DNA from: Gammaproteobacteria bacterium
GTDB lineage: Bacteria > Pseudomonadota > Gammaproteobacteria > Eutrophobiales > Eutrophobiaceae
DNA: 64,000 nucleotides
Direction of reading: 5' to 3'
NCBI GenBank assembly: GCA_965221695.1
Contig: OZ244905.1
Span: 2,880,001-2,944,000 of the forward strand
Every line of letters begins with the position of its first letter. The stretch's first letter is position 1. The position numbers and the translations under genes are program-made. The notes below the pieces were generated by a model that saw only the letters and a list, made by a program, of their open reading frames with translations, was not told where the DNA came from and did not search any database. Positions 1-63,722 of the stretch are shown here, one piece after another.

Positions 1-127
1 AGTGAAACAAGGAGTCGCCCTACGGGCGACACAGCATTTGACTGGACTCCCGCTTTTGCGGGAGTGGTACGGTGGCGGTGTTCCCGGTAGCGCCCCCATC
101 CCATTCCCGCGAAAGCGGGAATCCAGT
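1..127 (+). repeat. Tripartite palindromic repeat (B-C-linker-A), truncated by window start
   Basis: GTCGCCC-TAC-GGGCGAC (14-30), ACTGGACTCCCGC-TTTT-GCGGGAGTGG (41-67), CCATTCCCGC-GAAA-GCGGGAATCCAGT (101-127); same unit as the array at 63036-63722. Confidence 0.93.
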
Positions 128-196
128 CAATCAATATCTTCCTTGTCATAAGATGTATTTTGACTAATATATGCCAGCTATGGAGGTGTCATCGAC

Positions 197-1801
197 TTGC
201 TGAGTGATTTTTCAGACATGCCGGACGGGCAGCAGCTACACGCTGATGTCTGTATCATCGGCGCCGGTCCCGCCGGTGTCACCCTCGCTCGAAAGTTGGC
301 AAAACACGGGCATACGGTGTGTTTGCTTGAGTCCGGCGGCGAAGACTTCGAGCAGCAAACCCAGTCATTGTATGCGGGTTCCAGCGTCGGCAGGCGCTAT
401 TATCCGCTGGAAGACTCCCGCCTCAGGTTTTTTGGCGGAACATTGCACATCTGGGGAGGGCGTTGCGCGCGGCTGGACGATATAGACTTTGAACCACGCG
501 AGTGGGTCGCGCATAGCGGCTGGCCGATAAACGCCAGCGCACTGGCCGACTACTATCACCGCGCCCTCGACATGCTGGGTGTGGGCCGCGATCCCTGTGA
601 TGAGCGCCTCCTGCGCGAAATTGACCTGCAGAAACCGCCGTTCGACGAAAAACTGCTGACCACCCGTTTCTGGCAGTTTGCTACGCGCGAGGAACCGTTC
701 GCGCTCAGGCGCTGTGAAGACCTGGTCCGTTCTGAAAACGCGCAAGTCGTCTTGCATGCCAACGCAACACATATCCAGGCCGACCCGAATGCAAGCAGGG
801 TCAAACATATCCAAATCCGCGCGCTGGATGGCAAACAAGGCCGGGTCAGCGCCGCGTATTTCGTCGTTGCCTGTGGGGGAATTGAAAACCCCCGACTTTT
901 GCTCAGTTCATTCGATGTGGAGGTGAACGGCATCGGCAATGGTTTCGATCAGGTTGGCCGTTATTTCATGGAACACCCGTGTTGCCGCGTGGGTCGCCTG
1001 GATACCGACCAGGCCTACGCATTATGGGCCGCGCTGCGTAAAAGGTATCCGGCGAACCGCGCGCCCATCGCGCCGGCGCTGGTCCCGACTGCCTCGTTAC
1101 AGCGGGAAAAAGAGATACTCAACGCGGCGCTGACATTCAAGTTGCAAAGAGACCCCGGTCAAGGTGTCGCCGGCATGAACAAGCTCTATCAGCATATGAA
1201 GCACGAATTGGCGCCTGACCGAAAAGGGCGGCGTCTCTACTATGGATACCGTGATCTGCGAAACTGGTTCGACCGCAGCCTGCGGCCCGTTGGCGAGCGT
1301 GTGCGCGCGGCCTTGGGCACGACCAAGCTTTCCCTGATTTTGCGCGCTGAACAAGCGCCAAATCCAGATAGCCGCGTCCGTTTGTCTAACCGTAAAGACA
1401 GCCTGGGCATGCCCTGCGCGGAGTTGGATTGGCGCCTGTCCGCCCAGGACAAGCACACCGTGTCGACGCTCGCCGATACACTGCAGTCGGAGTTTCAACG
1501 TCTCAGCATAGGCGTTTTGCACAAGAGCGACTGGTTGCAGGAACCGGCAGCGGAGTGGCCTGCCGATTTGACCGTGGGCAATCATCCGCTCGGCGGTTAC
1601 CACCATATGGGAACGACGCGTATGAGCACGGATCCGAAAACAGGGGTCGTCGATGGCGATTGCAGAGTGCATAACCATCAGAACCTGTACGTGGCGGGCA
1701 GCTCAGTATTTCCCACCAGTGGTTGGGCGAACCCGACCCTGACGATCATCGCGCTGTCACTGCGCCTGGCAGACCATCTTGATGTCCGGTTGCGAAATTA
1801 G
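197..1801 (+). CDS. GMC-family FAD-dependent oxidoreductase
   Basis: N-terminal DVCIIGAGPAG Rossmann motif, GRYFMEHP, C-terminal HHMGTTRM...GVVD...NLYVAGSSVFPTSGWANPTLTI. Confidence 0.9.
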   Translation: MLSDFSDMPDGQQLHADVCIIGAGPAGVTLARKLAKHGHTVCLLESGGEDFEQQTQSLYAGSSVGRRYYPLEDSRLRFFGGTLHIWGGRCARLDDIDFEPREWVAHSGWPINASALADYYHRALDMLGVGRDPCDERLLREIDLQKPPFDEKLLTTRFWQFATREEPFALRRCEDLVRSENAQVVLHANATHIQADPNASRVKHIQIRALDGKQGRVSAAYFVVACGGIENPRLLLSSFDVEVNGIGNGFDQVGRYFMEHPCCRVGRLDTDQAYALWAALRKRYPANRAPIAPALVPTASLQREKEILNAALTFKLQRDPGQGVAGMNKLYQHMKHELAPDRKGRRLYYGYRDLRNWFDRSLRPVGERVRAALGTTKLSLILRAEQAPNPDSRVRLSNRKDSLGMPCAELDWRLSAQDKHTVSTLADTLQSEFQRLSIGVLHKSDWLQEPAAEWPADLTVGNHPLGGYHHMGTTRMSTDPKTGVVDGDCRVHNHQNLYVAGSSVFPTSGWANPTLTIIALSLRLADHLDVRLRN

Positions 1802-1834
1802 TAATCCTTCAATATGCTCTTGTCTGACAGCGCT

Positions 1835-1862
1835 TACCATTCCCCCGGCAACGGGAGTGGTA
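1835..1862. repeat. Collapsed single-hairpin form of the tripartite repeat
   Basis: TACCATTCCC-CCGGCAAC-GGGAGTGGTA: left arm of A joined to right arm of C. Confidence 0.7.
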
Positions 1863-1980
1863 CGGAGGCCTGGACCAACAGTTATATGCCGTCGTGGCGA
1901 GCAGGGCGCTGATCAATGGTTTTACAAGATAAGATGCGCGCCGTTATCCAAGCGGCAGTTGCATGAAAGGAGAGAAGTCA

Positions 1981-3180: not shown

Positions 3181-3206
3181 CGGGCGTGTTTTGTTAAACT
3201 ACGTTC

Positions 3207-4070: not shown

Positions 4071-4178
4071 AGTGAAAGAGTCGCCCTTCGGGCGACACAG
4101 CATTTGACTGGACTCCCGCTTCTCAGCCTGCCCCTGTATGGCGTTGAGCAGGGGCAGGCTGGGAAGCGGGAATCCAGT
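4071..4178 (+). repeat. Tripartite repeat with nested hairpin insert
   Basis: B hairpin, then C left arm + CAGCCTGCCCCTG-TATGGCGTTGAG-CAGGGGCAGGCTG + A right arm, forming a ~30-bp stem between convergent genes. Confidence 0.88.
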
Positions 4179-4193
4179 AGACAACAAAACTCC

Positions 4194-7383: not shown

Positions 7384-7409
7384 ACCATTCCCGCGTGCAC
7401 GGGAATGGT
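7384..7409. repeat. Collapsed single-hairpin form of the tripartite repeat
   Basis: ACCATTCCC-GCGTGCAC-GGGAATGGT, followed by a partial B arm GGCGACACA. Confidence 0.7.
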
Positions 7410-10383: not shown

Positions 10384-10424
10384 GAATCCAGTAAAACAAC
10401 GGGTCGCCTTTCAGGCAACACAGT
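10384..10424 (+). repeat. Partial tripartite repeat (end of A plus degenerate B)
   Basis: GAATCCAGTAAAACAACGGGTCGCCTTTCAGGCAACACAGT. Confidence 0.7.
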
Positions 10425-10428
10425 CTGG

Positions 10429-15127: not shown

Positions 15128-15308
15128 CGTAAGCGCCCCCACCCATTCCCCCGGCAAGCTCTCCCTTCCCAGCCTGCCCCTGTATGGCGTTGAGCAGGGG
15201 CGGGAGTGGTTTTGTGGCTGGGCGACACAGTATTCGACTTGCCTCTCGCTTTTGCGGGAGTGGTATGGTCGATGGTGACAAAGTGTTAAACTGGACTCCC
15301 ATCGGGAG
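15128..15308 (+). repeat. Scrambled tripartite-repeat cluster with nested insert
   Basis: Linker + CCATTCCC, AGCCTGCCCCTGTATGGCGTTGAGCAGGGG, GGGCGACACAGTATT, GCGGGAGTGGTATGG, ACTGGACTCCC. Confidence 0.8.
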
Positions 15309-15316: not shown

Positions 15317-17335
15317 ATGTTTCAAGTCAGAGAAAAACAATCCATGGATGCGCCGGCGAGCGCGCAAACCCAGTACCATCTTTTTGTTGGCGGCAGCTTC
15401 AGTGGCACATTCAGCAATAATCTCGATCAGGATTGGATCAGGGTCGATCTGGTTGCCGGTAAAACATACCTGATCAGCCTGTCCGGAAGCGGGGATAACA
15501 GCGGCGCCGATACCATCCTCAGGGTTTACAACTCGTCAGGAGAGCAAGTCGCCCTCAACGATGACACGGACTTGAGCGCCGGGCAACTGAATTCCACCCT
15601 AAGCTTTACCCCCGAGAGCAGTGGCGTTTACTACCTCAGCGCCGGCGTTTATGCCGGCAACCCTGCTAAGGACTATTCCGGGAGCTACATGCTGACACTG
15701 ACTGATCCGGAGGCTGCTGACGGCATCGGCGACCTGGCGCTGCAAGGCGGCGACGGCGACGACATCCTGGGCGGCGCCGATGGCGCCGATGAACTGCGGG
15801 GCGGCGCCGGCAACGACGAGTTGTATGGCTTCGGTGGGGAGGACTACCTGGTGGGAGAGGCTGGCGATGACCTGCTGGAAGGCGGCGATGATGCCGATCT
15901 GCTGCTGGGAGACAGCGACTCGGGCTTCTTTGCCAGGTCGCTGATCCCGGGCTATTACGCCAGCGACAACGCCAACGACGATTCATCTCCCGATGATCGG
16001 GGACCTGCGGATGTTGATAGTGGGGACCGTGAGGGCCCAACCGCGCTCGCCGAGGATGTCGCTGTCCCGATCTCTGAAGACCCGTTGGCTGATCTGTTCC
16101 CCGACCTGACCCGCGCCGGCACGCTGGATTTCCTTGAGCGCCAGTTGCGCGCCGGAAACGATGTCCTGCATGGCGGCGCCGGCGCAGACTGGCTCGAAGG
16201 CGGCGCCGGGAACGATGAGTTATTCGGCGGAGATGATGATGACAATCTGTTTGGCGACACCTCGCTGGAGCTGTTCTTTGGCTCGTTGCCGGCGATTGTG
16301 GTGAATGATGCCTCGGAACCCAACTCTGCTTTTGTCTTGGCATCGCCTGCGCAGGGCGAACAGGCTGACGCCGGCGCGACCACATCGGAACCGGACGAAA
16401 ACCAGGATGCGCTCGACAACCTGTTATTGATGCTGCTCATCGACCAGTTGACGGCCGGCGATGACAGGCTGGACGGCGGCGCCGGAAACGACTACCTCAG
16501 AGGTGGTTTTGGCAATGATGTGCTGCTCGGTGGCGCCGGCATTGATTGGCTCGAAGGCGGCGCCGGCAATGATGAGCTGGATGCCGGAACAGGGGACGAT
16601 TACCTGCGTGGTGACGCCGGAGATGATCTGTTGGCCGGTGGTTCCGGCGCAGATTGGCTTGAAGGCGGCAGTGGCAACGATACACTGGATGGCGGCGCCG
16701 GCGACGATGTGCTGACCGGCGACGATTATCCTTACTTCCTGTTTCTTGAATCCAACATCGGCAGACAGGCCGACAACCCCGACGCCGGCGACACTGACAC
16801 CGGCGTGTCAATAATGCTCTATGACCCGGATGCAGAACCGGATGACAGTGACGGCCCCGCCATCACCAGCGTCGACGAAGATGACAATGGGATGACCACG
16901 GGGAACAATCCGGGCGTAGTTATTGGCGTAGGTAGTAGTGACGCTAACACTGACTTGAGATTACTGACTACCTTCTTGGCGCCAGGCGGCGACGACACGT
17001 TATCCGGCGGCATGGGAGATGATTTGCTGGATGGAGGTCCCGGCAACGACCTGCTCACCGGTGGTACCGGCGCCGATGTCTTCATCTTCATACCCGCGGG
17101 TGGCTACGATGTTGTCGCGGATTTTCACGCAAACGAGGATCAGATCGACCTCAAGGCCTTTGCCGATATCAGTTCGATAGACGACCTGGCGCTGCAACAA
17201 CAGGGGGACGACCTGATCATCGACTTGTCCGCGCACGCTGGTGGAGAAGTCACACTGCAAGGTGTCGAACAGGCTGACCTGAACGACGCTAACTTCATTT
17301 TCTCCACTGGGGAAGCTTCTGCGATAATTGCCTGA
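15317..17335 (+). CDS. RTX-repeat Ca-binding protein with N-terminal PPC-like domain, probable T1SS substrate
   Basis: Many GGxGxDxL nonapeptides, acidic; N-terminal DWIRVDL...DTILRVYN...LNDD; no signal peptide. Confidence 0.88.
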   Translation: MFQVREKQSMDAPASAQTQYHLFVGGSFSGTFSNNLDQDWIRVDLVAGKTYLISLSGSGDNSGADTILRVYNSSGEQVALNDDTDLSAGQLNSTLSFTPESSGVYYLSAGVYAGNPAKDYSGSYMLTLTDPEAADGIGDLALQGGDGDDILGGADGADELRGGAGNDELYGFGGEDYLVGEAGDDLLEGGDDADLLLGDSDSGFFARSLIPGYYASDNANDDSSPDDRGPADVDSGDREGPTALAEDVAVPISEDPLADLFPDLTRAGTLDFLERQLRAGNDVLHGGAGADWLEGGAGNDELFGGDDDDNLFGDTSLELFFGSLPAIVVNDASEPNSAFVLASPAQGEQADAGATTSEPDENQDALDNLLLMLLIDQLTAGDDRLDGGAGNDYLRGGFGNDVLLGGAGIDWLEGGAGNDELDAGTGDDYLRGDAGDDLLAGGSGADWLEGGSGNDTLDGGAGDDVLTGDDYPYFLFLESNIGRQADNPDAGDTDTGVSIMLYDPDAEPDDSDGPAITSVDEDDNGMTTGNNPGVVIGVGSSDANTDLRLLTTFLAPGGDDTLSGGMGDDLLDGGPGNDLLTGGTGADVFIFIPAGGYDVVADFHANEDQIDLKAFADISSIDDLALQQQGDDLIIDLSAHAGGEVTLQGVEQADLNDANFIFSTGEASAIIA

Positions 17336-18730: not shown

Positions 18731-18740
18731 TGAGTTAGAC

Positions 18741-18775
18741 CCCGGGAGCGCGGGCGAGACGCCCGCGCTCCCGGG
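18741..18775. repeat. GC-rich perfect hairpin (REP-like; possible terminator)
   Basis: CCCGGGAGCGCGGGCG-AGA-CGCCCGCGCTCCCGGG, 16-bp stem just after the amtB stop. Confidence 0.7.
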
Positions 18776-18795
18776 AGAAGCGGTGGTTGCCCCGC

Positions 18796-18876
18796 CACCA
18801 TCCCACTCCTGCGAAAGCAGGAGTCCAGTCAAATTCTGTGTCGCCTGAAAGGCGACTCTTTACTCCACTGGATTCC
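18796..18876 (-). repeat. Tripartite repeat, reverse orientation
   Basis: CCACTCCTGC-GAAA-GCAGGAGTCCAGT, GTCGCCT-GAA-AGGCGAC, CACTGGATTCC. Confidence 0.88.
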
Positions 18877-18928
18877 TATTTCACAGCAAAATTATATAGG
18901 TGTCCTGTCTTTGCTTTACAATGTCGTC

Positions 18929-21699: not shown

Positions 21700-21750
21700 T
21701 CCCCCATTGTAACGCTTCTTAAATCAGGACACCCATGTCTTTTTTTTCAA

Positions 21751-21994
21751 GAGTCGCCCTGCGGGCGACAGAGTATTAGACTGGACTCCCGCTTTCGCGG
21801 GAGTGGTACGGTGGTGGTGTTAACGTAAGCGCCCCCCTCCCATTCCCGCGCAAGCGGGAATCCAGTGAGGCAAAGCGTCGCCCGCAGGGTGACACAGTAT
21901 TTGATTGGACTCCCGCTTCCGCGGGAGTGGTTATGCTGGCGGGGTGCGCATGAGTGGTTATGGTGACGGGGTTCGCGGGAGTGGTACGGTGGCG
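21751..21994 (+). repeat. Tripartite repeat cluster (~2 units)
   Basis: B-C-linker-A-B-C followed by two extra GAGTGGT tails. Confidence 0.92.
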
Positions 21995-32502: not shown

Positions 32503-32581
32503 GACAAAGGGTCGCTCTTGGGCGACACAATATTGGATTGGATCCCGCTTTTCAGCCGGCGTTGAGCAGGGCGGGAGTGGT
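32474..32581 (+). repeat. Tripartite repeat overlapping the rnfB 3' end
   Basis: A hairpin encodes PIPAQAGIQ-stop; degenerate B; C carries a shortened GGCGTTGAGCAGGG insert. Confidence 0.88.
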
Positions 32582-33204: not shown

Positions 33205-33313
33205 TATCTTTCTCCGGGCGCTTTGGGGCGAGGCAGAAGGTCTATCAACGGCAACATGTTCAGCAACAGATTTCTGCTTACGGACATTATCTTTCTCCGG
33301 GCGCCTTGGGGCG
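33163..33313. repeat. 83-bp-period tandem duplication of the rnfD/rnfG junction
   Basis: 68-bp near-identical copies at 33163-33230 and 33246-33313 (2 mismatches). Confidence 0.92.
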
Positions 33314-35810: not shown

Positions 35811-35850
35811 CCATCAATTGTATAGGAGATATGAAATGAGTGGAATGAGA

Positions 35851-35902
35851 GAGTCCGGTTTAATACTGTGTCACCCTGCGGGCGACCCTTTATTTCCTTG
35901 GA
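35851..35902 (-). repeat. Tripartite repeat core, reverse orientation
   Basis: Reverse complement reads TCCAAGGAAATAAAGGGTCGCCCGCAGGGTGACACAGTATTAAACCGGACTC. Confidence 0.8.
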
Positions 35903-35949
35903 CGCCCTGCAATAAGAGAACAGGGAGTGAATTATGCTAAAGTAAAGCA

Positions 35950-37335: not shown

Positions 37336-37351
37336 ATGCAGCATGAATACA

Positions 37352-37484
37352 GGTCGCCCAATTTGACTGGACTTCCTGTTTCGAGAGAGTGGTTCGGTCG
37401 CGTCGCTCACAGGAGCGCTCCCCATCCCATTCCCGCGCAAGCGGGAATCCAGTGAGACAACGGTCGCCCGAAGGGCGACACAGT
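37352..37484 (+). repeat. Tripartite repeat (degenerate C, intact A and B)
   Basis: CCATTCCCGC-GCAA-GCGGGAATCCAGT, GTCGCCC-GAA-GGGCGAC. Confidence 0.88.
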
Positions 37485-37509
37485 TGCAATTTGAATCGCT
37501 GTCCCGTAA

Positions 37510-44130: not shown

Positions 44131-47100
44131 ATGTCTAATCACAATGAGACGACGATGCAAGATGCGGCAGCAGGTCTTGACACGACGTACAGTTTCACTC
44201 CGGATGCCAGGGGCTCGTACAGGCCAGGCGTAGACGGCCGGGAGGGCAACAACACGTTCGAAGGAGCGCTTACCCCCGGAGATTCGGACTGGGTAAGTAT
44301 CGAATTGAAGGCCGGAACGGTTTATACCATTACCGTAACAGGCAGAGAGCTCGACAATGATCGGAGCACAGTAACTGCACTGAACGACTCCATTCTCACG
44401 GTCTATGACTCCAAGGGCGTCATGGTCGACATGAACGATGATATCGATGGCGCAGACGGCATGCTCAATTCCGAGTTGGAGATCAATCCGGATGCGGACG
44501 GCGTATTCTACATCGCTGTCAGCGCCTTCTCGGCGAACCCGGGAGCGTCGGCCAGTGGTGGTTATACCGTCACAGTGGCAGAGTCGGAACCGCCTGACCC
44601 GAATATGGGCAAAGACATAACCGGTACCGCGAACGATGACAAGCTGATAGGCACCGAGAAGAATGAAAAGATTAATGGCGGCCCCGATGGTACGGGCACT
44701 CCTGCTACGAATGGCAATGACTCGCTGTATGGCTTGGGCGGTGATGACACACTGCAAGGCGGCACAGGCAACGATCTGCTGGTAGGCGGCCCGGGTTCCG
44801 ATGTGAACCAGGGTGGCGCAGGCGAGGATACCGTGTCCTATGCGACTTCAGCGGAAGGCGTCCGTGTCAGCCTGTTGACCGGGATTGCCCGCGGCGGCGA
44901 CGCCGGTGGCGACTCCTTTGGCGACCCGAATGCGGAAGAGTATACCAACGACATAGAGAACCTCCAGGGTTCCGGGCACGACGACGAGTTGGTCGGCGAT
45001 ACCCTGGCCAACGAAATCTGGGGTCTCGGCGGCGATGACGTAATAAGCGGCAATGTCGGCGATGACACCCTCTCCGGCGGCGCAGGCGACGACGAACTGG
45101 ACGGCGGCGACGGCGACGACACGCTGACTGGCGGCGCAGGCGCTGATGCGCTGACTGGCGGCAAAGGTGATGATACTGCGTCCTACGAAGGTTCTGCGTC
45201 GGGCGTCATGGTGCGCCTGCATTCTTACGTGGCAAGAAATGTCGATCGCGAAGCGGAAAACGATTCCGACGCCGCAGGCGACACCTTCGTCGGCAGGACG
45301 ACTTACAAGCACACGACCACAAATGCTGATGACGAGACCATCAATACGGAATCCACGGCTGCCGATATCGAAAACCTGACCGGTTCAAGCCATGCGGATA
45401 TCCTCGCAGGTGACGGCCGAGAAAATGAGATCAAAGGTGGTGATGGTGACGACACGATCTATGGCGGTCCTGGCGGTGATAAAGATACCAACGATGACGA
45501 CCTGTACGGCGAAGGTGGCAATGATACGCTGTACGGCGGTATCGGCGATGACGAGTTGTTCGGTGGCGACGGCGACGATGTGCTCGTGGGTGGCCCCGGT
45601 CTGGACAAGTATGAGGGCGGTGCCGGCAACGACCTGATTTATGTCGACAAAGCAGACGCCGATGATACTAACGGCAAAGTCCACGGCGGCGAAAACACTG
45701 CTGCGGGTTCACGTCCGGACAGCGATACCGTATCTTTTGAGCGGTTTACCGATGATGATGGTGGAATCACAGGTGTTGCTCTTGGTACTGGCATTTATCT
45801 GCAGATCGAAAATGCTATCGGCACCGACTTTGATGATACGATCACAGGTAGTGACAGTGAGGCAAATACCATAGAAGGTGGTGAAGGTGGCGATACGCTG
45901 AGTGGCGGCGCTGATAGTAATGATCCTGGCGATACTGTGTCTTATGCAAGTTCACCTAAGCGTGTGAGGATCGATTTTAGCGGTGCTACCGATACGGCCG
46001 TTGGCGGTCATGCCACGGGTGATACCCTTAAGAACTTCGAGAACATTATCGGGTCTGCTTATGATGATGTATTGGAAGGTGACGACACCGCCAACGTACT
46101 CACAGGCCTCGCCGGCGACGATGAACTGGCAGGCAATGGCGGTGATGATACGCTGAGTGGTGGCGACGGTGATGATGAGTTGAACGGCGGCTTAGGCGAC
46201 GACACTCTGGAAGGTGGCGCTGGCGCTGACGAACTGGATGGTGGCGCTGCGGAGGACAGTAATGGTAATCCGCTAGCTGCATCTACTAGAAATACACTGT
46301 CCTATGCCAGTTCGGACGCCGGTGTTTCGGTAAATCTGGCGTCTGCCAATGCTGCGGGCGGCCACGCCCAGGGCGACATCATTGCTGTCATTGATGATGT
46401 CGACCACGACGGCGACGAACTGACAGATTCTGACGGTGATAACGACCCCGACGACAGAACGGATACAGCCAGGATTGACGTTGCCACATTCGCCAGTCTC
46501 ACCGGTTCAGCGCACAATGACAGCCTGACCGGCGACTACCGGATGAATGTCCTCAACGGCGGCGATGGTATAGACAGTCTTGACGGCCGCGGCGGCTGGG
46601 ATATGCTCATCGGCGGCGCCGGCGCTGACCGGCTGGATGGTGGCGAGTCTGGCGCAGTGGCTGATGACCCGTCTACCGCTGGTACTGATGAGACAAGAGC
46701 GGAAGATGTCGACTGGGCAGTCTACCGGGATGCCAAAGGCGGCGTTACGGTGAACTTGCAGACCGGCATGGGTACTGCCGGCGACGCCGACGGTGATGAG
46801 CTGACTGATATCGAACTGGTCTGGGGTTCTAGCGACGAGGACAATGGTGATACGTTTATAGCCAGCGACGGCGCTGACCTGATCCACGGCGATCTTGGCA
46901 GCGATACGGTGTCCTACGAGGCCTCGAGCTTGGGAGTTACCGTTTCACTTGTTGGTGCAGCCAGGAGTAATACCTTTGATGATACGGATTGGGATAAGGA
47001 TCCGACAGATGGCGTCATCGCAACAGCTACGCCGACTAATGGACGAGGCCTGCCGGATGACGACTTGGCTCCAGCTCAAGATCTGCTTGACAAGGATGGG

Positions 47101-47742
47101 GCGGTTACAACCGATCCGGATGATAATGTCAACGGCGCAGCCGGCGACAGGCTGGGCGGCATTGAGAATATCACAGGTTCTGATTATGACGACTCCCTGA
47201 CCGGTGACGAGAATGCCAACACCCTCAATGGTGGTGGTGGCGAAGATACGTTGAACGGTGGAGATGGTGACGACACCTTGAATGGTGGCGCTGGTGAGGA
47301 CACCTTGAATGGTGGCGTTGGAGTTGACATCTTGAGTGGCGGAGCCGGTGATGACACCCTGGATGGTGGCGATGGCAATGACACCCTGAACGGTGGCGCT
47401 GGCGACGACAACCTGACGGGCGGAGCCGGTAATGACAGACTGAACGGCGGAACCGGCGATGATGATTTGGAAGGCGGAGCTGGCGATGACACGTATATCA
47501 TCGGCCTTGACAACGGCGACGATTACATCGTTGGTTTTGACAAGGATGCTGCTCTTGAGAGGATTGACCTTTCGGCCTTCGATAGCATTGACTCGTTCGA
47601 CGATCTGACCATCAGGGTACGCGGTGGCAATGCAGTGATCGACCTGTCCGCCCATGGCGGTGATTCGATCACGTTAGTCGGCATTAACCAAGATGATCTT
47701 ACTGACGGCACCTTCGGCGCCAACGACTTCATCATTGTGTAA
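44131..47742 (+). CDS. Large RTX-repeat Ca-binding surface/secreted protein (1203 aa), probable T1SS substrate
   Basis: PPC-like N-terminal domain, dozens of GGxGxDxL repeats, recurring DTVSY..S..GV.V.L...A.GD...IENL.GS modules; C-terminus like that of the 15317 protein. Confidence 0.92.
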   Translation: MSNHNETTMQDAAAGLDTTYSFTPDARGSYRPGVDGREGNNTFEGALTPGDSDWVSIELKAGTVYTITVTGRELDNDRSTVTALNDSILTVYDSKGVMVDMNDDIDGADGMLNSELEINPDADGVFYIAVSAFSANPGASASGGYTVTVAESEPPDPNMGKDITGTANDDKLIGTEKNEKINGGPDGTGTPATNGNDSLYGLGGDDTLQGGTGNDLLVGGPGSDVNQGGAGEDTVSYATSAEGVRVSLLTGIARGGDAGGDSFGDPNAEEYTNDIENLQGSGHDDELVGDTLANEIWGLGGDDVISGNVGDDTLSGGAGDDELDGGDGDDTLTGGAGADALTGGKGDDTASYEGSASGVMVRLHSYVARNVDREAENDSDAAGDTFVGRTTYKHTTTNADDETINTESTAADIENLTGSSHADILAGDGRENEIKGGDGDDTIYGGPGGDKDTNDDDLYGEGGNDTLYGGIGDDELFGGDGDDVLVGGPGLDKYEGGAGNDLIYVDKADADDTNGKVHGGENTAAGSRPDSDTVSFERFTDDDGGITGVALGTGIYLQIENAIGTDFDDTITGSDSEANTIEGGEGGDTLSGGADSNDPGDTVSYASSPKRVRIDFSGATDTAVGGHATGDTLKNFENIIGSAYDDVLEGDDTANVLTGLAGDDELAGNGGDDTLSGGDGDDELNGGLGDDTLEGGAGADELDGGAAEDSNGNPLAASTRNTLSYASSDAGVSVNLASANAAGGHAQGDIIAVIDDVDHDGDELTDSDGDNDPDDRTDTARIDVATFASLTGSAHNDSLTGDYRMNVLNGGDGIDSLDGRGGWDMLIGGAGADRLDGGESGAVADDPSTAGTDETRAEDVDWAVYRDAKGGVTVNLQTGMGTAGDADGDELTDIELVWGSSDEDNGDTFIASDGADLIHGDLGSDTVSYEASSLGVTVSLVGAARSNTFDDTDWDKDPTDGVIATATPTNGRGLPDDDLAPAQDLLDKDGAVTTDPDDNVNGAAGDRLGGIENITGSDYDDSLTGDENANTLNGGGGEDTLNGGDGDDTLNGGAGEDTLNGGVGVDILSGGAGDDTLDGGDGNDTLNGGAGDDNLTGGAGNDRLNGGTGDDDLEGGAGDDTYIIGLDNGDDYIVGFDKDAALERIDLSAFDSIDSFDDLTIRVRGGNAVIDLSAHGGDSITLVGINQDDLTDGTFGANDFIIV

Positions 47743-47953: not shown

Positions 47954-47955
47954 AT

Positions 47956-51034: not shown

Positions 51035-52783
51035 ATGCAACCAAAGCTTCCAGGAAATACAGGCCCGGCAGAAGAAACCCAATTGCAGGCGGCATTGCGC
51101 CGTTGCCGCAAGGGTTTGCTGGGTGTGACCCTGTTCAGCGCGATGGCCAATATACTGATGCTGGTGGCGCCGGTCTACATGCTGCAGATGTACGACCGGG
51201 TATTGACCAGCGCCAGTTACGAGACCTTGATCGTGCTGACCGTGGTGGCGGTCTTCCTGCTGGCCTGCTTCGGTCTGTTGGATTGGGTGCGCCAGCGGCT
51301 GATGGCGCGTATCGCGCTGTTCCTGAACTACGAGGTCATGGATGACGTGCTGACCGGCGTGTTCCGCGGCAGCCTGCAACGCTTCCGGCAGAGCGCCGAC
51401 CAGCCGGTACGCGATCTCGATACGGTGCGCCAGTTCATATCCAGCCCGCCCGCGCTGTCCTTCTTCGACGCCCCCTGGGCGCCGGTGTTCATCGGCGCCA
51501 TCTTCCTGATCCACCCGTGGCTGGGTTTTTTTGCAATTTTCGCCGCGTTGTTCATCCTGATGCTGGCCTTGCTTACGGAGTGGACCTCCCGCGGGCCGTT
51601 CCGTAATGCATCGGAACACACTGCGGAGTCTCACCGGTTTATTGAAAGCAGCCTGCGCCATGCGGATGTGCTCGAAGCGATGGGCATGTTCGAGGGTTTT
51701 CGCCGCCGCTGGCGTGACAAGCATGACCGCGGCATCGCGTTTCAGGCTCGGGGCGGTTCCAGGGTCAGCATGTTGCTGGCCACTTCCAAGTCCGGCCGCC
51801 AGATCGTTCAGGTAGGCATTCTGGGCCTCGGCGCCTGGTTGGTACTGAAGCAGGCAATCTCGCCGGGCATGATGATCGCCGCTTCCATTATCCTCGGGCG
51901 TGCGCTGGCGCCCATCGAACAAGGCATTTCGGGATGGCGTGGCTTCGTCTCGGCGCGCCAGTCCTGGCGCCGCTTGAACAACCTGCTCGACGCCGCGCCA
52001 CCGGCGCAAGGCGGGGGCGCGACCAGTTTGCCCCGGCCCACCGGCCTGCTGGAGGTGGAGAGCGTGTCCGCGGCGCCGCCGGGGGCCACCAAAGCGACGC
52101 TGCTACGGATAAATTTTACCCTGGAGCCGGGTTCCAGCACGGGGCTGATCGGCCCCAGCGGCAGCGGCAAGAGCACCCTGGCCCGCCTGCTGGTGGGCGT
52201 ATGGACTCCCCAGGCGGGGGCGGTGCGCCTCGATGGCGCAATGATCGCCGACTGGCCGACCGAAAGCCGGTTCCGCCATGTGGGCTACCTGCCCCAGGAG
52301 GTGGAACTGTTCGAGGGCACGGTGGCCGAGAACATTGCTCGCCTGTCCGAACCGGACAACGAGGCAGTGATCGCCGCCGCACAGCAGGCGAACTGCCATG
52401 ACATGATCATGCGCCTGCCGGAGAACTATAACACGCCGATAGCGGCCGGTGGCGCCAACCTGTCAGCCGGCCAACGCCAGCGCGTGGCCTTGGCGCGGGC
52501 CATATACGGCGACCCGGCGCTGATCATCCTGGACGAGCCGGACGCGAACCTCGATGCAGACGGCGAGATGGCGCTCAGGAACGCGTTGCTCGCGTTGTCC
52601 AAGCGCGGCGTAACGCTGCTGATAGTGACCCACAACTTCCGCCTGCTGCAAGTGGTCAGGAATGTGATGGCGCTGAAAGATGGCGTGCTGCTGGAGAACG
52701 GCCCACGGGAAGAAGTCCTGAAACGCTTCATGCGCCCCGCTCCGGCAGTCGCCGGCGCAAAGAAAGCGCAAGCTGGAAACTAA
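51035..52783 (+). CDS. Type I secretion ABC transporter, PrtD family
   Basis: YMLQMYDRVL.S, FFDAPW, GPSGSGKST, LSAGQRQR, ILDEP. Confidence 0.93.
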   Translation: MQPKLPGNTGPAEETQLQAALRRCRKGLLGVTLFSAMANILMLVAPVYMLQMYDRVLTSASYETLIVLTVVAVFLLACFGLLDWVRQRLMARIALFLNYEVMDDVLTGVFRGSLQRFRQSADQPVRDLDTVRQFISSPPALSFFDAPWAPVFIGAIFLIHPWLGFFAIFAALFILMLALLTEWTSRGPFRNASEHTAESHRFIESSLRHADVLEAMGMFEGFRRRWRDKHDRGIAFQARGGSRVSMLLATSKSGRQIVQVGILGLGAWLVLKQAISPGMMIAASIILGRALAPIEQGISGWRGFVSARQSWRRLNNLLDAAPPAQGGGATSLPRPTGLLEVESVSAAPPGATKATLLRINFTLEPGSSTGLIGPSGSGKSTLARLLVGVWTPQAGAVRLDGAMIADWPTESRFRHVGYLPQEVELFEGTVAENIARLSEPDNEAVIAAAQQANCHDMIMRLPENYNTPIAAGGANLSAGQRQRVALARAIYGDPALIILDEPDANLDADGEMALRNALLALSKRGVTLLIVTHNFRLLQVVRNVMALKDGVLLENGPREEVLKRFMRPAPAVAGAKKAQAGN

Positions 52784-52786
52784 TAT

Positions 52787-52875
52787 AAGGGGTCGCCCCT
52801 CGGGCGACACAGAACATGACTGGACTCCCGCTTCCGCGGGAGTGGTACGGTGGTGAAGCTCGCGGGAGTGGTACG
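52787..52875 (+). repeat. Tripartite repeat (B-C) inside the T1SS operon
   Basis: GTCGCCC-CTC-GGGCGAC, ACTGGACTCCCGC-TTCC-GCGGGAGTGG. Confidence 0.88.
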
Positions 52876-52885
52876 CAAATACAAG

Positions 52886-54334: not shown

Positions 54335-55776
54335 GTATCGGGAATCCAGTAAGACAAGGGGTCACCCTGCGGGCGACGCGGTATTTGACTGGACTCCCGC
54401 TTTCGCGGGAGTGGTGCGGTGGCGCCGCAGGCGCACTTTATTCCCTTATGCTCGCGCTAAACTTCGCACTGCCCACTGCCGCTGCCGCCGAGAACGCAGT
54501 CACCGACAGTGTAGTCACCAACAGCGCAGTCACCAGCAACGCAGCCGTCGACAGCGCCGCTGCTGACAGCGCAGGCGCCTACACCCTCTCGCAGGCATTC
54601 CTCGACACTTTGGCGCGGGACCCTCAAATACAGGCGGCGGAGAGCCGCGTCGCCGAGGCGCGCGAGCGGATGGAGGAAGTGAACGCCAGTCTGCGTCCCT
54701 CGCTTACCCTGTCCGGCAATACCGGTTATGCCTATAACCGCAACCAGGCTCGCATCACATCGATCTACGAAGGCCACTCGTCCCGGGGCAGGGTGCAGTT
54801 GAATCAAAACCTGTACACCTTTGGCCGTATTGAAGGCCGCCGCCAGCGTGTTGATGCCGAGATCGCCGAAGCGGAATTTGCCCTCGAAGAAGTACGCCAG
54901 GATGTACTGGCGGAGGTTGCCCGCGCCTTTTCCGAACAGTTGTTCCGGGAACGCATCTACCAGAGCCGCCAAGACTTTGAGAAGCTGCTGGGTGAGTTGG
55001 AGGATGCGGCGCGCCGCCGCATCGAACTGGGCACCCTGGACCGCACCGAATTATTTGGCGTGCTGCGCCGTCTGCACCAGGCAAAGGCGCAGCGCATCGA
55101 GGCACATTCCCGTTACCGCGTGGCGCGCGCGCAATTGGCCCGCCTGACGGGTCTGGAACACGACAACCTGGCCCCTGCCTCCCTGGCAAGTCTGGAACTG
55201 GCGGCGCCGACCAGTCTCGACTTCGCGTTGCACCAGGCAGAAAAGCAGTCTCCTGCGTTGATGCAAGCGCGTATGCGCCTGGAGGCTGCCGAGGGTGAGC
55301 TCGCATTCCGCAAGGCCGAACTCTGGCCGACCCTGAGCCTGGAAGTAAACGCCAGCACAGGCAATGTCGGGCAGATCGACACCACTGATGTCGTCGGTGG
55401 AGTCAATATCTCTGTGCCGATGTATGAGGGCGGCGCCAAGCGCTCGCAGTTGCGCGGCGCCAGGCTGGCGGTGGAGACTGCGCGCCGGGAACTGTTTGCG
55501 GTACAGGAACGGGTCGATATTGATGTGCGTTCCAACTGGGACCTGCTTCAAGGTCTGGTTATGTCTCTGCTGGAATTCGAGGCAGCCGTCGCCGACATGG
55601 ATGAAGTAGTGGCTTTGACCGGTAGTAAACTCGACGTAGGCCGCGCCACTTTCGTGCAGCACATCGAAGCCCGGCAAGACGCGCTGGATGTTGAATACGA
55701 ACTACTGAACAGCCACCTTCGCCTGGAAGAAACCCGCATCGAATTGCTGCGCGTCCTGGCGGAACTCAGTCCCTGA
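54331..55776 (+). CDS. TolC-family outer-membrane protein
   Basis: ATGA-coupled to the MFP gene; hydrophobic signal region, two OEP repeats (P.L.L, QNLYTFG, VPMYEGG). Confidence 0.9.
   Translation: MSIGNPVRQGVTLRATRYLTGLPLSREWCGGAAGALYSLMLALNFALPTAAAAENAVTDSVVTNSAVTSNAAVDSAAADSAGAYTLSQAFLDTLARDPQIQAAESRVAEARERMEEVNASLRPSLTLSGNTGYAYNRNQARITSIYEGHSSRGRVQLNQNLYTFGRIEGRRQRVDAEIAEAEFALEEVRQDVLAEVARAFSEQLFRERIYQSRQDFEKLLGELEDAARRRIELGTLDRTELFGVLRRLHQAKAQRIEAHSRYRVARAQLARLTGLEHDNLAPASLASLELAAPTSLDFALHQAEKQSPALMQARMRLEAAEGELAFRKAELWPTLSLEVNASTGNVGQIDTTDVVGGVNISVPMYEGGAKRSQLRGARLAVETARRELFAVQERVDIDVRSNWDLLQGLVMSLLEFEAAVADMDEVVALTGSKLDVGRATFVQHIEARQDALDVEYELLNSHLRLEETRIELLRVLAELSP
54339..54424 (+). 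repeat. Tripartite repeat in frame within the TolC ORF
   Basis: CGGGAATCCAGT...GTCACCC-TGC-GGGCGAC...ACTGGACTCCCGC-TTTC-GCGGGAGTGG with no in-frame stop. Confidence 0.9.
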
Positions 55777-57559: not shown

Positions 57560-57661
57560 AGGTTGCACAGTATCGCATGTTTGACCCGAATTTCAACAAG
57601 ATCAGGGCGCTGCGCATCCCGACGATATGTAATAGTTGGCACAGGCCAGGCTATTCCCCTA

Positions 57662-57734
57662 TACCACTCCCGCAACAGCGGGAGTCCAGTCAAATACTTT
57701 ATCGCCTGAAAGGCGACCCTTTGTTCACTGGATT
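57662..57734 (-). repeat. Tripartite repeat, reverse orientation
   Basis: TACCACTCCCGC-AACA-GCGGGAGTCCAGT, TCGCCT-GAA-AGGCGAC, CACTGGATT. Confidence 0.88.
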
Positions 57735-57803
57735 ACGTAGTTTGCCCCCGCTCAGCGCCACACTTAGTAAAACTAACACAGCAAATAATGCTAGAATCGG
57801 CGT

Positions 57804-59062: not shown

Positions 59063-59096
59063 TGCCTCACCCGCCTCCACGACGGGTGAGGCAAAA
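59063..59096. terminator. Stem-loop between convergent genes
   Basis: TGCCTCACCCG-N9-CGGGTGAGGCA flanked by A runs. Confidence 0.55.
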
Positions 59097-59165
59097 TGTA
59101 AGCAGAATTCCTTACAACTGACCGGAGAGTCGATCTGCTATCGATTTATCCGGATTGTCGGTTCC

Positions 59166-59519: not shown

Positions 59520-59748
59520 ACTAATTCCCTCCTACAGTTATTATTGCATGAAGGGCCTACCGTCGACTGCCCCAAGCTTGTCCCTCAGACGCAATCTTCG
59601 GTAAGCCGCCACACAACTATAGCACATAAACAACGTAAGCGGTCAAGAGGAAATTCGCATATTTGTGAACGCGGAGGCTGGCATGACACCCTTGCGCGAA
59701 TAATATACAATCGGCACACACCATTTATAAGACTTCGTGAGGAACAAA

Positions 59749-61686
59749 ATGTCTGAAGTGAAAGCCTATCCGGTCTCTCCGACTGTTGCCGGCGATGCCA
59801 ATATTAACGAAAAACAATACGCCGCGATGTACGACCAGTCCATCAACGATCCGGACGCGTTCTGGGCCGAACAGGCTGAAAAGTTCGTAAGCTGGTCCAG
59901 GAAGTGGGACAAGGTCCAGGACTGGGACTATAACAAGGTGGACATCAAGTGGTTCAGTGGGGCTAAACTGAATGTATCGTACAACTGCCTGGACCGGCAC
60001 CTGGAGACCCGCGGTGATGATGTGGCCATTATCTGGGAGGGCGACGACCCCAGTGTCGATAAAAAGATCACCTACCGGGAACTGCACCGGGAAGTATGCC
60101 GTTTCGCCAACGTTCTGAAGGCCAGGGGCGTCGGCAAGGGTGACCGCGTGTCCATCTACATGCCGATGATCCCGGAGGCGGCCGTGGCGATGCTGGCCTG
60201 CACCCGTATCGGCGCGGTTCACTCGATCGTGTTCGGCGGGTTCTCCCCGGAGGCGCTCAAGGACCGCATCCTGGATTCCGATTGCCGCGTGGTCGTTACC
60301 GCGGACGAAACCGTGCGCGGCGGCCGCACTACACCGCTGAAGGCGAACACCGACAAGGCCCTTGAGCATTGCCCGGATGTGCACAGCGTGATCGTGGTGC
60401 AGCGCTCCGGCGCCGATGTGGACTGGACCGAGGGGCGTGACCTCTGGTACCACGAGCAGATGGAGCAGGCCGCTGACGACTGCCCACCGGAGGAAATGGA
60501 CGCGGAAGACCCGCTGTTTATCCTTTACACCTCCGGTTCCACCGGCAAACCCAAGGGAGTTCTGCACACCACCGGCGGTTACCTGCTGTATGCCGCCCTG
60601 ACCCACAAGTACGTGTTTGATTATCACGACGGCGAGGTCTACTGGTGTACCGCCGATGTGGGCTGGGTAACGGGGCATACCTACATTGTTTACGGACCGC
60701 TGTGCAACGGCGCCATCACCCTGATGTTCGAGGGCGTGCCCACCTATCCTGATGCGGGCCGCTTCTGGCAGGTGGTGGACAAGCACCAGGTCAACATCTT
60801 CTATACCGCGCCGACGGCGTTACGCGCCCTGATGGGGCAGGGCGACGAGTTTGTGAAACGGCACGACCGCGGCAGCCTGCGCATACTCGGCAGTGTCGGC
60901 GAACCGATCAACCCGGAGGCCTGGGAGTGGTACTACCACGTGGTCGGCGACGAGCGCTGTCCGATTGCGGACACCTGGTGGCAGACCGAGACCGGCGGTA
61001 TTCTCATTTCTCCGTACCCGGGCGCCACTGCCCTGAAACCCGGCTCCGCCACCCGGCCCTGTTTCGGTGTGGAGCCATGCCTGGTGGACGACAAGGGTAA
61101 CGAACTGGATGGCGCGACCTCCGGCGCGCTGTGCATCAAACGCTCCTGGCCAGGCCAGATGCGCACTGTGTACGGCGACCACCAGCGCTTTATTGACACC
61201 TACTTCAAGACCTTCCCCGGCATGTATTTCACCGGCGACGGGGCGCGCCGCGACGAAGACGGCTATTACTGGATCACCGGGCGCGTGGACGACGTGATCA
61301 ATGTCTCCGGTCACCGCATGGGCACCGCCGAAGTGGAAAGCGCGCTGGTGCTGCATGATGCGGTTGCCGAGGCCGCCGTGGTAGGCTTCCCCCATGATAT
61401 CAAGGGGCAGGGCATCTATGCCTACGTGACCCTGATGGGCGGGGTCGAATCTTCCCCGGAACTGCGCCGGGAGCTGGTTTTACATGTACGCAAGGAGATC
61501 GGCCCCATCGCCAGCCCGGATGTGGTCCAGTGGGCGCCGGGCTTGCCCAAGACCCGTTCCGGCAAGATCATGCGTCGCATCCTGCGCAAAATCGCCGCCA
61601 ATGAACTGGATAACCTGGGCGACACCAGCACCCTGGCAGACCCCGCAGTCGTCGATGACTTGATTGAGAACCGGGAAGTGAAATAA
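59749..61686 (+). CDS. acs: Acetyl-CoA synthetase
   Basis: [38 protein letters not shown]. Confidence 0.98.
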
Positions 61687-61832
61687 AGGGTCGCCCTCCG
61701 GGCGATGCAGAATTAGACTGGACTCCCGCTTCCGCGGGAGTGGTATGGTGGCGGGTTCACGGGAGCGCCCCCAACCCATTCCCGCGAAAGCGGGAATCCA
61801 GTGAAATACTATGTCGTCCGGAGGACGACACA
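61672..61832 (+). repeat. Tripartite repeat (B-C-linker-A-B)
   Basis: Starts at the acs stop; the second B is GTCGTCC-GGA-GGACGAC (compensatory pair). Confidence 0.9.
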
Positions 61833-61847
61833 TTATACTTCCAGTAA

Positions 61848-63032
61848 ATGATCACTGAAAACATCGCCGAATTGAAAGAGTATTTCAACCTCTGGTTGGA
61901 AGCCGGCGAACAGGCGTATGCGGAAATCGCGTTTACTGACGAGTACGCCCGCAATTTTGCCGGTCTGGTGAATGCCTTCCTGGCCATGCGCGCTGAGTTG
62001 GATGCGCAGCCTGACGGGGTCGCCCTGCCGGGGCTTCCCGGCTTTGCCGGCTTGCCCGGCGCGACGCCCGTTGAAGTCGGACCGTCAGCCAGGGACGAGG
62101 CGCACCGGGAGGACAAGGTTCGCCTATACCGTTACCGGGCGTTAGTCGATGAACCCCATGCCGTCCCGGTGCTGATCGTCTACGCCCTGGTCAACAGGCC
62201 ATATATCATGGACTTGCAGGAAGGGCGTTCCTTGGTACAGGGGCTGCTCAAGGCCGGCCTGGACGTTTACCTGCTCGACTGGGGTTGTCCCGACGATGGT
62301 GATACGGGCCTAACCCTGGATGATTACATCAACCGCTACCTGGGCAACGCGGTGGATATCATCCGGCAGCGCCACAGCGCGGAACGCATCAACCTGCTGG
62401 GTGTGTGCCAGGGTGGTACCTTCTGCCTTTGTTATACCGCCTTGCATCAGGATAAGGTCGCCAACCTGGTGACCAGCGTGACGCCGGTGGACTTTCACAC
62501 CCCGCGCGACCTGCTCAGCCACCTGGTGCGGCACGTGGACATGGACCTGGCCGTAGATACGCTGGGCAATATACCCGGCGAGTTCCTGAACTGGTTGTTC
62601 CTGATGTTGAAACCGTACAAGCTGACCGGGAAGAAGTACCTGGATGCGTTGGAGCTACTGCATGACAAGGACCGGTTCGCTACCTTCATGCGCATGGAAA
62701 AATGGATCTTCGACAGTCCGGACCAGGCCGGCGCCGCCTGCCGCCAATTTGCGAGGGATTTCTACCAGGGCAACAAGCTGGTCAAGGGCGAGGTCGAAAT
62801 CGGCGGCAAACGGATAAACCTGGAGTCGATCACCGTCCCGGTCCTGAACATTTTCGCCACCAACGACCACCTGGTCCCGGTCGATGCGTCAAAAGCGCTG
62901 GCCGGCTGCATCAGCAGCAAGGATTACACCGAACTGGAGCTTCCCGGCGGCCACATCGGCATCTACGTAGGCGCCGGCGCCAAAGACACCTTACCCGTCG
63001 CCATCAACAACTGGCTCAGGCAACGGCCCTGA
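61848..63032 (+). CDS. phaC: Class III PHA synthase PhaC with N-terminal PhaE-like segment
   Basis: YALVNRPY..DLQ, GVCQGG catalytic Cys box, RMEKWIFDSPDQAG, DHLVP, GGHIG. Confidence 0.9.
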   Translation: MITENIAELKEYFNLWLEAGEQAYAEIAFTDEYARNFAGLVNAFLAMRAELDAQPDGVALPGLPGFAGLPGATPVEVGPSARDEAHREDKVRLYRYRALVDEPHAVPVLIVYALVNRPYIMDLQEGRSLVQGLLKAGLDVYLLDWGCPDDGDTGLTLDDYINRYLGNAVDIIRQRHSAERINLLGVCQGGTFCLCYTALHQDKVANLVTSVTPVDFHTPRDLLSHLVRHVDMDLAVDTLGNIPGEFLNWLFLMLKPYKLTGKKYLDALELLHDKDRFATFMRMEKWIFDSPDQAGAACRQFARDFYQGNKLVKGEVEIGGKRINLESITVPVLNIFATNDHLVPVDASKALAGCISSKDYTELELPGGHIGIYVGAGAKDTLPVAINNWLRQRP

Positions 63033-63035
63033 CAA

Positions 63036-63722
63036 TACCATTCCCGTGCAAACGGGAATCCAGTGAAACAAAGGGTCGCCCTTTGGGCGACACAGTATTC
63101 TACTGGACTCCCACTTTCGTGGGAGTGGTATGGTGGCGGGGTTAGCGGTAGCGCCCCGCATCCCATTCCCGTGGAAACGGGAATCCAGTGGGACAACGAG
63201 TCGCCCTTCGGGCGACACAGTATCTGACTGGACTCCCGCTTCCGCGGGAGTGGTACGGTGGCTGGGTTTACGGAAGCGCCCCCCATCCCATTCCCGTGGA
63301 AACGGGAATCCAGTGAGACAACGAGTCGCCCTTTGGGCGACACAGTATCTGACTGGACTCCTGCTTTCGCAGGAGTGGTACGGTGGCGGTGTTCACGCAA
63401 GCGCCCCCATCCCATTCCCGTGGAAACGGGAATCCAGTGAAACAAGGGGTCGCCCTTTGGGCGACACAGTATTCTACTGGACTCCCACTTTCGTGGGAGT
63501 GGTATGGTGGCAGTGTTCACGGGAGTGCTCCCCACCCCATTCCCGTGGAAACGGGAATCCAGTGAGACAACGAGTCGCCCTTTGGGCGACACAGTATCTG
63601 ACTGGACTCCTGCTTTCGCAGGAGTGGTACGGTGGCGGTGTTCACGCAAGCGCCCCCATCCCATTCCCGTGGAAACGGGAATCCAGTGGGACAAGGGGTC
63701 GCCCTTCGGGCGACACTGTATT
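63036..63722 (+). repeat. Tandem array of 5.5 copies of the 124-125-bp tripartite palindromic unit
   Basis: Unit starts (CCATTCCC) at 63038, 63163, 63288, 63412, 63537, 63661. Confidence 0.97.

Follow-up and report, generated by a model that had tools for sequence, protein, structure and literature searches.

Covarying hairpins of a mosaic intergenic repeat in a gammaproteobacterium resemble the DNA targets of Ssn nucleases

The closest described relatives of the repeat analyzed here come from Neisseria, where the NTS, CGTCATTCCCGCGMAVGCGGGAATCYRG, has the dRS3 palindrome ATTCCC-N8-GGGAAT as its core (Chenal et al., Nat Commun 2025, PMC11893778). In that account, the NTS is bound by SsnA, a 94-amino-acid GIY-YIG protein that cuts upstream of it and acts on single-stranded DNA only; SsnA is reported there not to bind RNA. 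The C following the palindrome is described as most important for binding and the three preceding bases, GTC in Neisseria, as most important for cutting, and activity was abolished when the palindrome was altered with the hairpin kept. A degenerate Ssn-related motif (SRM) is said to flank most Ssn homologs. Here, we analyze a 64,000-nucleotide (nt) stretch, the window, from a gammaproteobacterium of the Eutrophobiaceae (genome G000; GenBank GCA_965221695.1, contig OZ244905.1, G000:C1:2880001-2944000), whose 96.85% complete genome is a single 3.54-Mb contig with 55% G+C. A preliminary description of the window had reported three hairpins, A, B and C, with compensatory base changes across dispersed copies. 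These copies probably represent an intergenic repeat of mosaic structure, made up of Ssn-related DNA hairpins of the NTS/dRS3 type that an Ssn-like nuclease reads.

Like the NTS and SRMs as Chenal et al. present them (PMC11893778), our repeat has the same 8-bp palindrome core and 3' flank, ATTCCCGCG-N-A-N-GCGGGAAT-CCAG, is intergenic and clustered, with copies in the hundreds, and is accompanied by a single-domain GIY-YIG gene of about 95 amino acids. As with the SRMs beside homologs in other taxa, its stems covary and its copies form inverted pairs and tandem arrays. In contrast to NTS and SRMs, the upstream GTC is replaced by CC in every copy of G000 and of its sister genome G008, the hairpins belong to a mosaic of fixed layout, 125 nt long, that includes a third hairpin, B, and the repeats lie on one side of the gene. 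The repeat also shares features with the NIMEs, dRS3 hairpins flanking RS elements, namely 20-bp ATTCCC-N8-GGGAAT palindromes, spacers of 38 to 47 nt and an array length that varies between close relatives (PMC1797815). However, the NIMEs are described in that source with more than 100 RS families, whereas here there are two fixed spacer modules, l1-B-l2 and D, and every second palindrome is an inverted ACTCCC/GGGAGT variant.

The REP/BIME elements of enterobacteria and pseudomonads, with their RAYT proteins, offer another parallel, as extragenic palindromes of alternating orientation, with linker motifs, arranged in mosaics. Their recognition as single-stranded hairpins is proposed. Our repeat differs from them in sequence, lacks a RAYT gene and has a GIY-YIG nuclease as its associated protein. 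For single hairpins, two reports ascribe unusual stability as DNA hairpins to GCGNNAGC and to GNA loops (PMC13037366, PMC3201870). The tips of A and C similarly read GCG-NA-AGC on the recognized strand and B reads C-GNA-G on the C strand, although the hairpins of those two reports are synthetic or biophysical as presented there, and the GTG-NAA-AC allele (84 of 301 copies) does not fit GCGNNAGC. Searches for later work on Ssn turned up, besides the 2025 paper, only a 2026 preprint in which SsnA repeats serve as a benchmark; the supplementary genome lists of PMC11893778 may already include our genus.

The 125-nt unit and its hairpins

The three hairpins are parts of one intergenic mosaic unit, [A-B-C-D], which runs over 125 nt in the order A, CCAGT, linker, B, linker, ACTGG, C and spacer D. 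Hairpin A reads ATTCCCGY-N4-RCGGGAAT, with a loop that is mostly GNAA; hairpin C reads ACTCCCGC-N4-GCGGGAGT, with its GNAA loop on the recognized strand; and the smaller hairpin B, GTCGCCC-N3-GGGCGAC, lies between them. Loop lengths of 4, 3 and 4 nt (A, B and C) are as first described. A and C had been treated as separate kinds, but C is an A-type hairpin inverted and read on the opposite strand, so that each unit carries one recognition-type hairpin per strand, A on the top and C on the bottom. Being inverted copies, A and C pair with each other around B in the minimum-energy fold of the unit, and a 156-nt stretch folds far better than its shuffles (z of -6.65 and -7.70 on the two strands). 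The long A:C helix was rejected as a conserved structure, having no excess of covariation (16 versus 15.3 shuffled).

When the A- and C-type hairpins of the whole genome are oriented by their CCAGT flank, the ATTCCC/GGGAAT type accounts for 134 copies and the ACTCCC/GGGAGT type for 126, both with [A/C]CC upstream and CCAGT downstream. The two types agree in what they present on their own strand: GNAA loops in 115 of 134 A-type and 93 of 126 C-type copies, a C at +1 after the palindrome in 131 and 124, respectively, and the 3' flank CCAG, which fits the CYRG of NTS and SRMs, in about 95% of the oriented copies. Altogether, CC and CCAGT are more than 90% conserved on the strand that reads GNAA. 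B is directional as well, with a GNA loop on the C strand in 75 of 107 oriented copies. From the palindrome onward, A with its 3' flank, ATTCCCGCGAAAGCGGGAATCCAG, fits the Neisseria NTS/dRS3 consensus, and the dRS3-type core ATTCCC-N8-GGGAAT has 100 exact matches in the genome.

An nhmmer profile built from the array units finds 155 repeat loci in the genome, 19.8 kb in total. The preliminary description had counted about 18 copies in the window; the profile merges them to 14 loci, and four solitary hairpins (1839, 7387, 37944 and 47934) come in addition. By rough gene calls from open reading frames (ORFs) and codon scores (2547 genes, 85% of the genome), all 155 loci are intergenic, 146 of them outright and nine overlapping only the over-extended 5' ends of ORFs. 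Within two substitutions of the consensus, we count 301 A/C-type hairpins (185 fully Watson-Crick, 28 with G.T only, 88 with a mismatch) and 148 B hairpins (96 fully paired, eight with G.T only, 44 with a mismatch), against 17 and 33 matches, respectively, in a reversed-genome control.

Pairing across copies and the neighboring nuclease gene

The stem variants first reported in the window are all present. C stems read CTCCCGC/GCGGGAG eight times, CTCCCAC/GTGGGAG at 63108 and 63482, and CTCCTGC/GCAGGAG at 18806, 63358 and 63607; A stems include both CCCGC/GCGGG and CCCGT/ACGGG; and B varies to GTCGCCT/AGGCGAC at 18840 and GTCGTCC/GGACGAC at 61813. With up to two mismatches, the C pattern matches 20 times in the window versus 0.47 expected, a number that none of 100 shuffles reaches, and the B pattern has 21 matches versus 0.82 expected, again reached by none of 100 shuffles. 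The compensatory variants are not all independent, since all but one of the five variant C stems found in the window sit in one array of 249-nt period, and these four represent at most two events.

We tested pairing at three levels, each against 500 shuffles, none of which reaches the observed values; because shuffling ignores the kinship of the copies, these values are not probabilities. In the 64 full A-B-C units of G000 (three hairpins plus the CCAGT/ACTGG stem), 95.5% of cells are paired versus 93.6% shuffled, and 41 cells are changed on both sides versus 10.9. This signal comes mostly from the loop-closing pairs (in A, U-A 39 and C-G 20) and three pairs of C, and most other stem pairs are nearly invariant. 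In the genus, 11 genomes were each represented by one unit, picked as the best match to a model that already holds the structure; these units give 98.0 versus 91.4% paired and 23 versus 6.7 double-changed cells, with both-sided changes in each of A, B and C. In 86 distinct SRMs from other taxa, the figures are 98.4 versus 85.3% and 82 versus 20.1 cells. The paired base changes are real: pairing is kept beyond chance in A, B and C, and double-sided changes exceed those of shuffles within the genome, within the genus and across phyla.

The spread of variants over the genome follows the same lines. The closing pair of the 301 A/C copies is C-G in 183 and T-A in 84, and the pair next to it is A-T 14 times versus 2.0 expected from the single-side frequencies (28 and 22 of 301). 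Compensated forms recur: ACTCCCAC/GTGGGAGT in 11 copies at eight loci, ACTCCTGC/GCAGGAGT in four copies at three loci and ACTCCCGT/ACGGGAGT in six copies at four loci. Half-changed forms are singletons, each alone in its own locus. The suggestion that pairing and not sequence is maintained is not supported. Most stem pairs hardly vary, the core of A is identical to the letter beside Ssn genes in other phyla, and the published enzyme is reported to be inactive once the palindrome is altered with pairing kept (PMC11893778).

The window ends with a candidate reader of these hairpins. A single-domain, Ssn-like GIY-YIG gene of 97 amino acids from its ATG lies on the minus strand at window 63727-64020 (G000:C1:2943730-2944020), its start 20 nt past the window end (PF01541, E 7.8e-16, residues 7-78). 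It is the sole copy in G000 and has no further domain. One base before it ends the longest of the 155 loci, a plus-strand tandem array of 696 bp (63032-63727; tandem repeat 63038-63725) with 5.5 units [A-B-C-D] of 125 nt and a higher-order period of 249 nt; repeats lie on this side of the gene only. Y9, Y20 and E67, invariant in six relatives, are spaced as the published catalytic Y6, Y17 and E64, a comparison of position numbers rather than of an alignment with the Neisseria sequence. A PDB sequence search gave a weak match to the small GIY-YIG protein 1zg2 (E 9e-4); repetitive WD40 matches in the same search were judged meaningless. Of the two functions first proposed for a conserved structure, recognition by a protein has its best candidate in this gene beside the largest array, and an RNA role is not supported (see below). 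We infer that the 97-amino-acid protein binds or cuts the G000 hairpins.

Relatives of the protein at 56-70% identity occur in many phyla. From 600 candidate stretches, 585 were confirmed and the best 80 kept; in 66 of these 80 loci, the published SRM search motif occurs within 1.5 kb, and many of its matches read CGTCATTCCCGCGAAAGCGGGAATCCAG. These SRM-flanked homologs lend indirect support to a putative placement of the G000 protein in the Ssn family (CDD cd10448). The core of A is identical to hairpins flanking GIY-YIG Ssn genes in many phyla, and inverted A-type plus C-type pairs (e.g., in L122 and L153) and tandem arrays are also found beside homologs. Within the genus, where 23 genomes were surveyed, the G000 query finds the gene in G000, G003, G008, G014 and G018 only, and each of these five genomes has at least 82 matches to the repeat model. 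Congener nucleases are 61-70% identical to the G000 protein. G018 carries canonical NTS units on both sides of the gene, G003 has repeats beside it, including a GTC-flanked hairpin with a nested insert in its loop, and G014, G024 and G029 have related CGTC...CCAG hairpins.

What sets our genome apart is the upstream flank. Counted by exact pattern in the survey of the genus, G000 has no GTC-flanked and 154 CC-flanked copies, and G008 none and 318. GTC predominates in most congeners carrying such hairpins, with GTC and CC counts of 292 and 6 in G018, 73 and 20 in G007, 48 and 3 in G020, 44 and 2 in G002, 42 and 8 in G021, 39 and 6 in G003, 36 and 6 in G011, and 28 and 9 in G014. A homologous A-B-C unit with GTC ends is present in four of the 10 other genus genomes compared (G002, G003, G018 and G020). 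It is tempting to suppose that, in the G000/G008 lineage, the flank of the roughly 150 to 320 hairpins went from GTC to CC in a joint switch with the nuclease. This would be a natural re-targeting, with one site per strand per unit, in a family still expanding (154 versus 318 copies, with gains and losses of units). We put this forward tentatively, as a possibility on which we would not rely. In that event, cleavage specificity would presumably have changed along with the flank.

Loci in the window and comparison with a sister genome

The window has a collinear counterpart in G008, with about 93% DNA identity, and the nucleases of the two genomes are identical. Of the 10 window loci compared, eight are of unequal length in G000 and G008, with whole modules or units gained or lost at 18.8, 32.5, 54.4 and 61.7 kb. 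At 18788-18883, on the minus strand, an inverted unit holds the C-type variant ACTCCTGC/GCAGGAGT (18805-18824) and the B variant GTCGCCT/AGGCGAC (18840-18856), and G008 has two more units. The plus-strand locus at 32472-32580 combines A (32476-32495) with a degenerate B and a hairpin that carries a nested insert; G008 has one extra 125-nt unit here, and its orthologous A shows a compensated C-G to T-A change. At 54337-54445 (plus), an A remnant is followed by B (54361-54377) and C (54393-54412), to which G008 adds D-A. The plus-strand locus at 61669-61839 reads B-C-D-A-B', where B' is GTCGTCC/GGACGAC (61813-61829), and G008 has a single B. A partial minus-strand unit at 35843-35907 with B at 35870-35886 is mostly absent from G008.

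The remaining plus-strand loci are a locus that starts 50 nt before the window and reaches position 135, reading (A), B (14-30), C (46-65), D and A (103-122); B (4080-4096) followed by an A/C-type hairpin with a nested insert of about 42 nt in its loop, at 4078-4178; a weak partial unit match at 10384-10426 (nhmmer E 1.6e-5); a degenerate C-type hairpin (15242-15261) at 15219-15271; a B-C-D-A-B-C mosaic at 21749-21955; a degenerate C, D, A (37429-37448) and B (37463-37479) at 37334-37496; and B (52792-52808) with C (52824-52843) at 52767-52876. On the minus strand, the locus at 57656-57736 has a C-type hairpin (57666-57685) whose loop is AACA, followed by B and the beginning of A, in the opposite orientation. 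Three metagenome runs with short contigs, compared at 90% likeness, show a rise in depth of about 5- to 20-fold at three repeat loci. In two of them, contigs pass from 57582 to 57788 and omit the 57656-57736 element, which at that likeness is weak evidence.

Two of the solitary hairpins have ACC...GGTAC flanks and lack CCAGT. The one at 1839-1858, unoriented, is a hybrid of an A-type 5' arm and a C-type 3' arm and has the look of an A-B-C unit whose interior is missing or has not yet been inserted; the other lies at 7387-7406. The nested hairpin of about 42 nt inside the loop of some A/C-type hairpins, CAGCCTGCCCCTG...TATGGCGTTGAG...CAGGGGCAGGCTG, is found at window 4112-4173 and 32540-32570. 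Partial strings of it occur 8+6 and 9+4 times in the genome, and the same insert is present in the G003 hairpins beside the nuclease gene (L074:1925-2100). Single A-B-C units form the center of a conserved element, about 215 nt in length, whose left arm ends ...GTAAATTTTGCTAACTGACCTGCGCCCCATACC and whose right arm reads GGTACGGAGGAATGCC...CTGATCATGAGGGTTT; ten G000 loci were aligned, and seven or eight have full arms (e.g., 251467, 1676174, 2306408 and 2530551).

Five such elements of G008, at G008:C1 33136-32897, 149899-150147, 208086-208313, 234165-234363 and 571937-572144, are at none of the orthologous G000 sites, and in two of the five cases, another small palindromic element occupies the G000 site. 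Several indel sites with a different palindromic element in each genome look like replacements for this reason. Among the 16 indels inspected against G008, we saw no clean target-site duplication. Two other small palindromic families, GGAACCTCTGA...TCAGAGGTTCC and CTCTGACAAGTCCAGGATGGACTTGTTCAGAG, also vary in presence between G000 and G008; they lie near G000:C1 1882133, 2724043, 2724625, 2751944 and 2780531, sometimes at the site of the A-B-C element of G008.

Other features of the window were recorded alongside. An ORF ending at 61686 has its last codons and stop inside repeat sequence (an A remnant and the A-B linker, window 61660-61690), so that the repeat supplies the end of the gene. 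A GC-rich hairpin family, CCCGGGAGCGCGGGCG-AGA-CGCCCGCGCTCCCGGGAG, adjoins the 18.8-kb locus (window 18740-18790) and has relatives in G008-specific insertions near G008:C1 449800 and 585830. The long ORFs at 15317-17335 and 44131-47742 contain 27-nt periodic GGC/GAC-rich repeats (15746-16579, 45058-45174 and 47219-47462) that resemble RTX-type calcium-binding nonapeptide repeats. An 83-bp tandem repeat (2.1 copies, 91% matches) at 33163-33336 is unrelated to the hairpin family. An Rfam scan of the window returned only a tRNA, with no family matching the repeats, and an NCBIfam search gave nothing close to any cut-off.

Competing explanations and significance

Several observations weigh against an Ssn-type reading, in addition to the limits of the shuffles and of the genus sample given above. 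In G000, none of the exact-pattern copies has the upstream HGTC that sets the orientation of NTS and SRMs and governs cleavage, and the published SRM motif matches at background level (24 matches versus 23 in the reversed genome); it misses the G000 copies because every one has CC where the NTS has GTC. The comparison of orthologous sites, proposed in the preliminary description, shows whole-unit differences and little compensation. Of 50 hairpins placed in long alignments, we dropped 11 outside repeat loci, 17 in the big array, where register is uncertain, and one that was gapped. The 21 retained hairpins (161 pairs) were chosen as well formed in G000, a choice that skews the direction of loss; one-sided changes affect eight pairs, and two pairs were compensated and paired in both genomes. 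The compensated changes may have been copied from other loci, switching alleles that were already common. Stem divergence is about that of the surrounding DNA, which implies weak purifying selection on single copies. In addition, the G000 query found the nuclease gene in only four of the 22 other genus genomes, and six of the 18 gene-less ones hold 69-85 matches among at most 96 scored candidates, so the repeats can persist, and perhaps spread, without the nuclease; these related genomes are not independent, and the line of at least 69 matches was set after seeing the data.

A first alternative is that the repeats are selfish and driven by recombination, with pairing renewed by copying among some 150 loci or by quasi-palindrome template switching, with no selection for a protein partner and with the nuclease gene a passenger or a former mobilizer. 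The whole-unit differences at eight of 10 loci, the copy numbers of 154 and 318, the excess of uncompensated changes at single loci and the six gene-less genomes all fit. So do the two double changes themselves, both C-G to T-A switches at the closing pair. With 12 changed stem sites among 322, independent hits would be expected to produce about 0.2 double changes; 8 of 77 loop sites changed as well. The loop changed with the closing pair in one of the two compensated cases and likewise in B at 18840, which is easier to reconcile with copying from another copy than with templating inside the hairpin. Single copies decay at about the local rate, and pairing is restored more often than chance, probably in part via copying from other loci; with eight one-sided and two compensated changes, it is kept mainly at the level of the family and not of each copy. 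However, local copying cannot explain why the same core and covariation recur beside Ssn genes across phyla. If the pairing arose by mutation alone, the local data would be accounted for, but this conservation would not. Also against this account are the flanks CC and CCAGT, well kept on the GNAA strand, and the published enzyme, which binds this very palindrome together with the C after it (PMC11893778). We consider selfish spread alone an unlikely explanation.

Two further explanations take their cue from REP elements. The hairpins could act in RNA, like E. coli REP in 3' untranslated regions, stopping exonucleases or transcription; many copies do lie near stop codons (median of about 35 nt from upstream ORF calls, with several loci overlapping the stop), and the stable fold of the 156-nt stretch on both strands would suit such a role. 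But orientation within tandem gene pairs is even (46 versus 44), and of the 146 classified loci, 90 lie between tandem, 32 between convergent and 24 between divergent genes, about the make-up of all intergenic gaps. The T-run of an intrinsic terminator is largely missing, with TTTT within 12 nt after three of 257 A/C and 24 of 130 B hairpins. The lack of an Rfam match, a loop asymmetry that fits stable DNA loops (GNAA and GNA) and the reported failure of SsnA to bind RNA (PMC11893778) argue the same way, and we hold an RNA role to be very improbable. It is harder still to credit a REP/BIME system moved by a RAYT (IS200/IS605-type) transposase, or target sites for a recombinase of the IS110 type, in the way that filamentous phages of Neisseria use dRS3. 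The mosaic arrays of alternating palindromes with linkers resemble BIMEs and dRS3 is a known integration site (PMC1797815), yet G000 has no match to PF01797 or PF01548, searches that were each positive in six of 14 control genomes.

Altogether, the stem changes are best read as reflecting a DNA hairpin that a protein reads in single-stranded DNA, not in RNA. Under the Ssn-type reading, the hairpins would fold when DNA is single stranded, whether incoming, replicating or recombining, and the 97-amino-acid GIY-YIG nuclease would bind them by sequence and structure and cut nearby. A need for the folded stem would let variants changed on both arms persist and spread and leave half-changed copies single. 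By analogy with N. meningitidis, the cellular role may be to trim single-stranded incoming DNA and thereby modulate recombination. DprA and ComEC homologs are present in G000, but they say little about competence because they also match in 10 to 11 of 14 control genomes.

The kind of repeat, the nuclease family and their association are already published. What is specific here is the fixed three-hairpin 125-nt unit, the complete GTC-to-CC switch common to G008, and a close pair of genomes in which turnover can be studied. Ssn/hairpin pairs are of practical interest as programmable cutters of single-stranded DNA, and the contrast of G000 and G008 with their GTC-bearing congeners provides a natural setting in which to compare how Ssn nucleases select the place of their cut.

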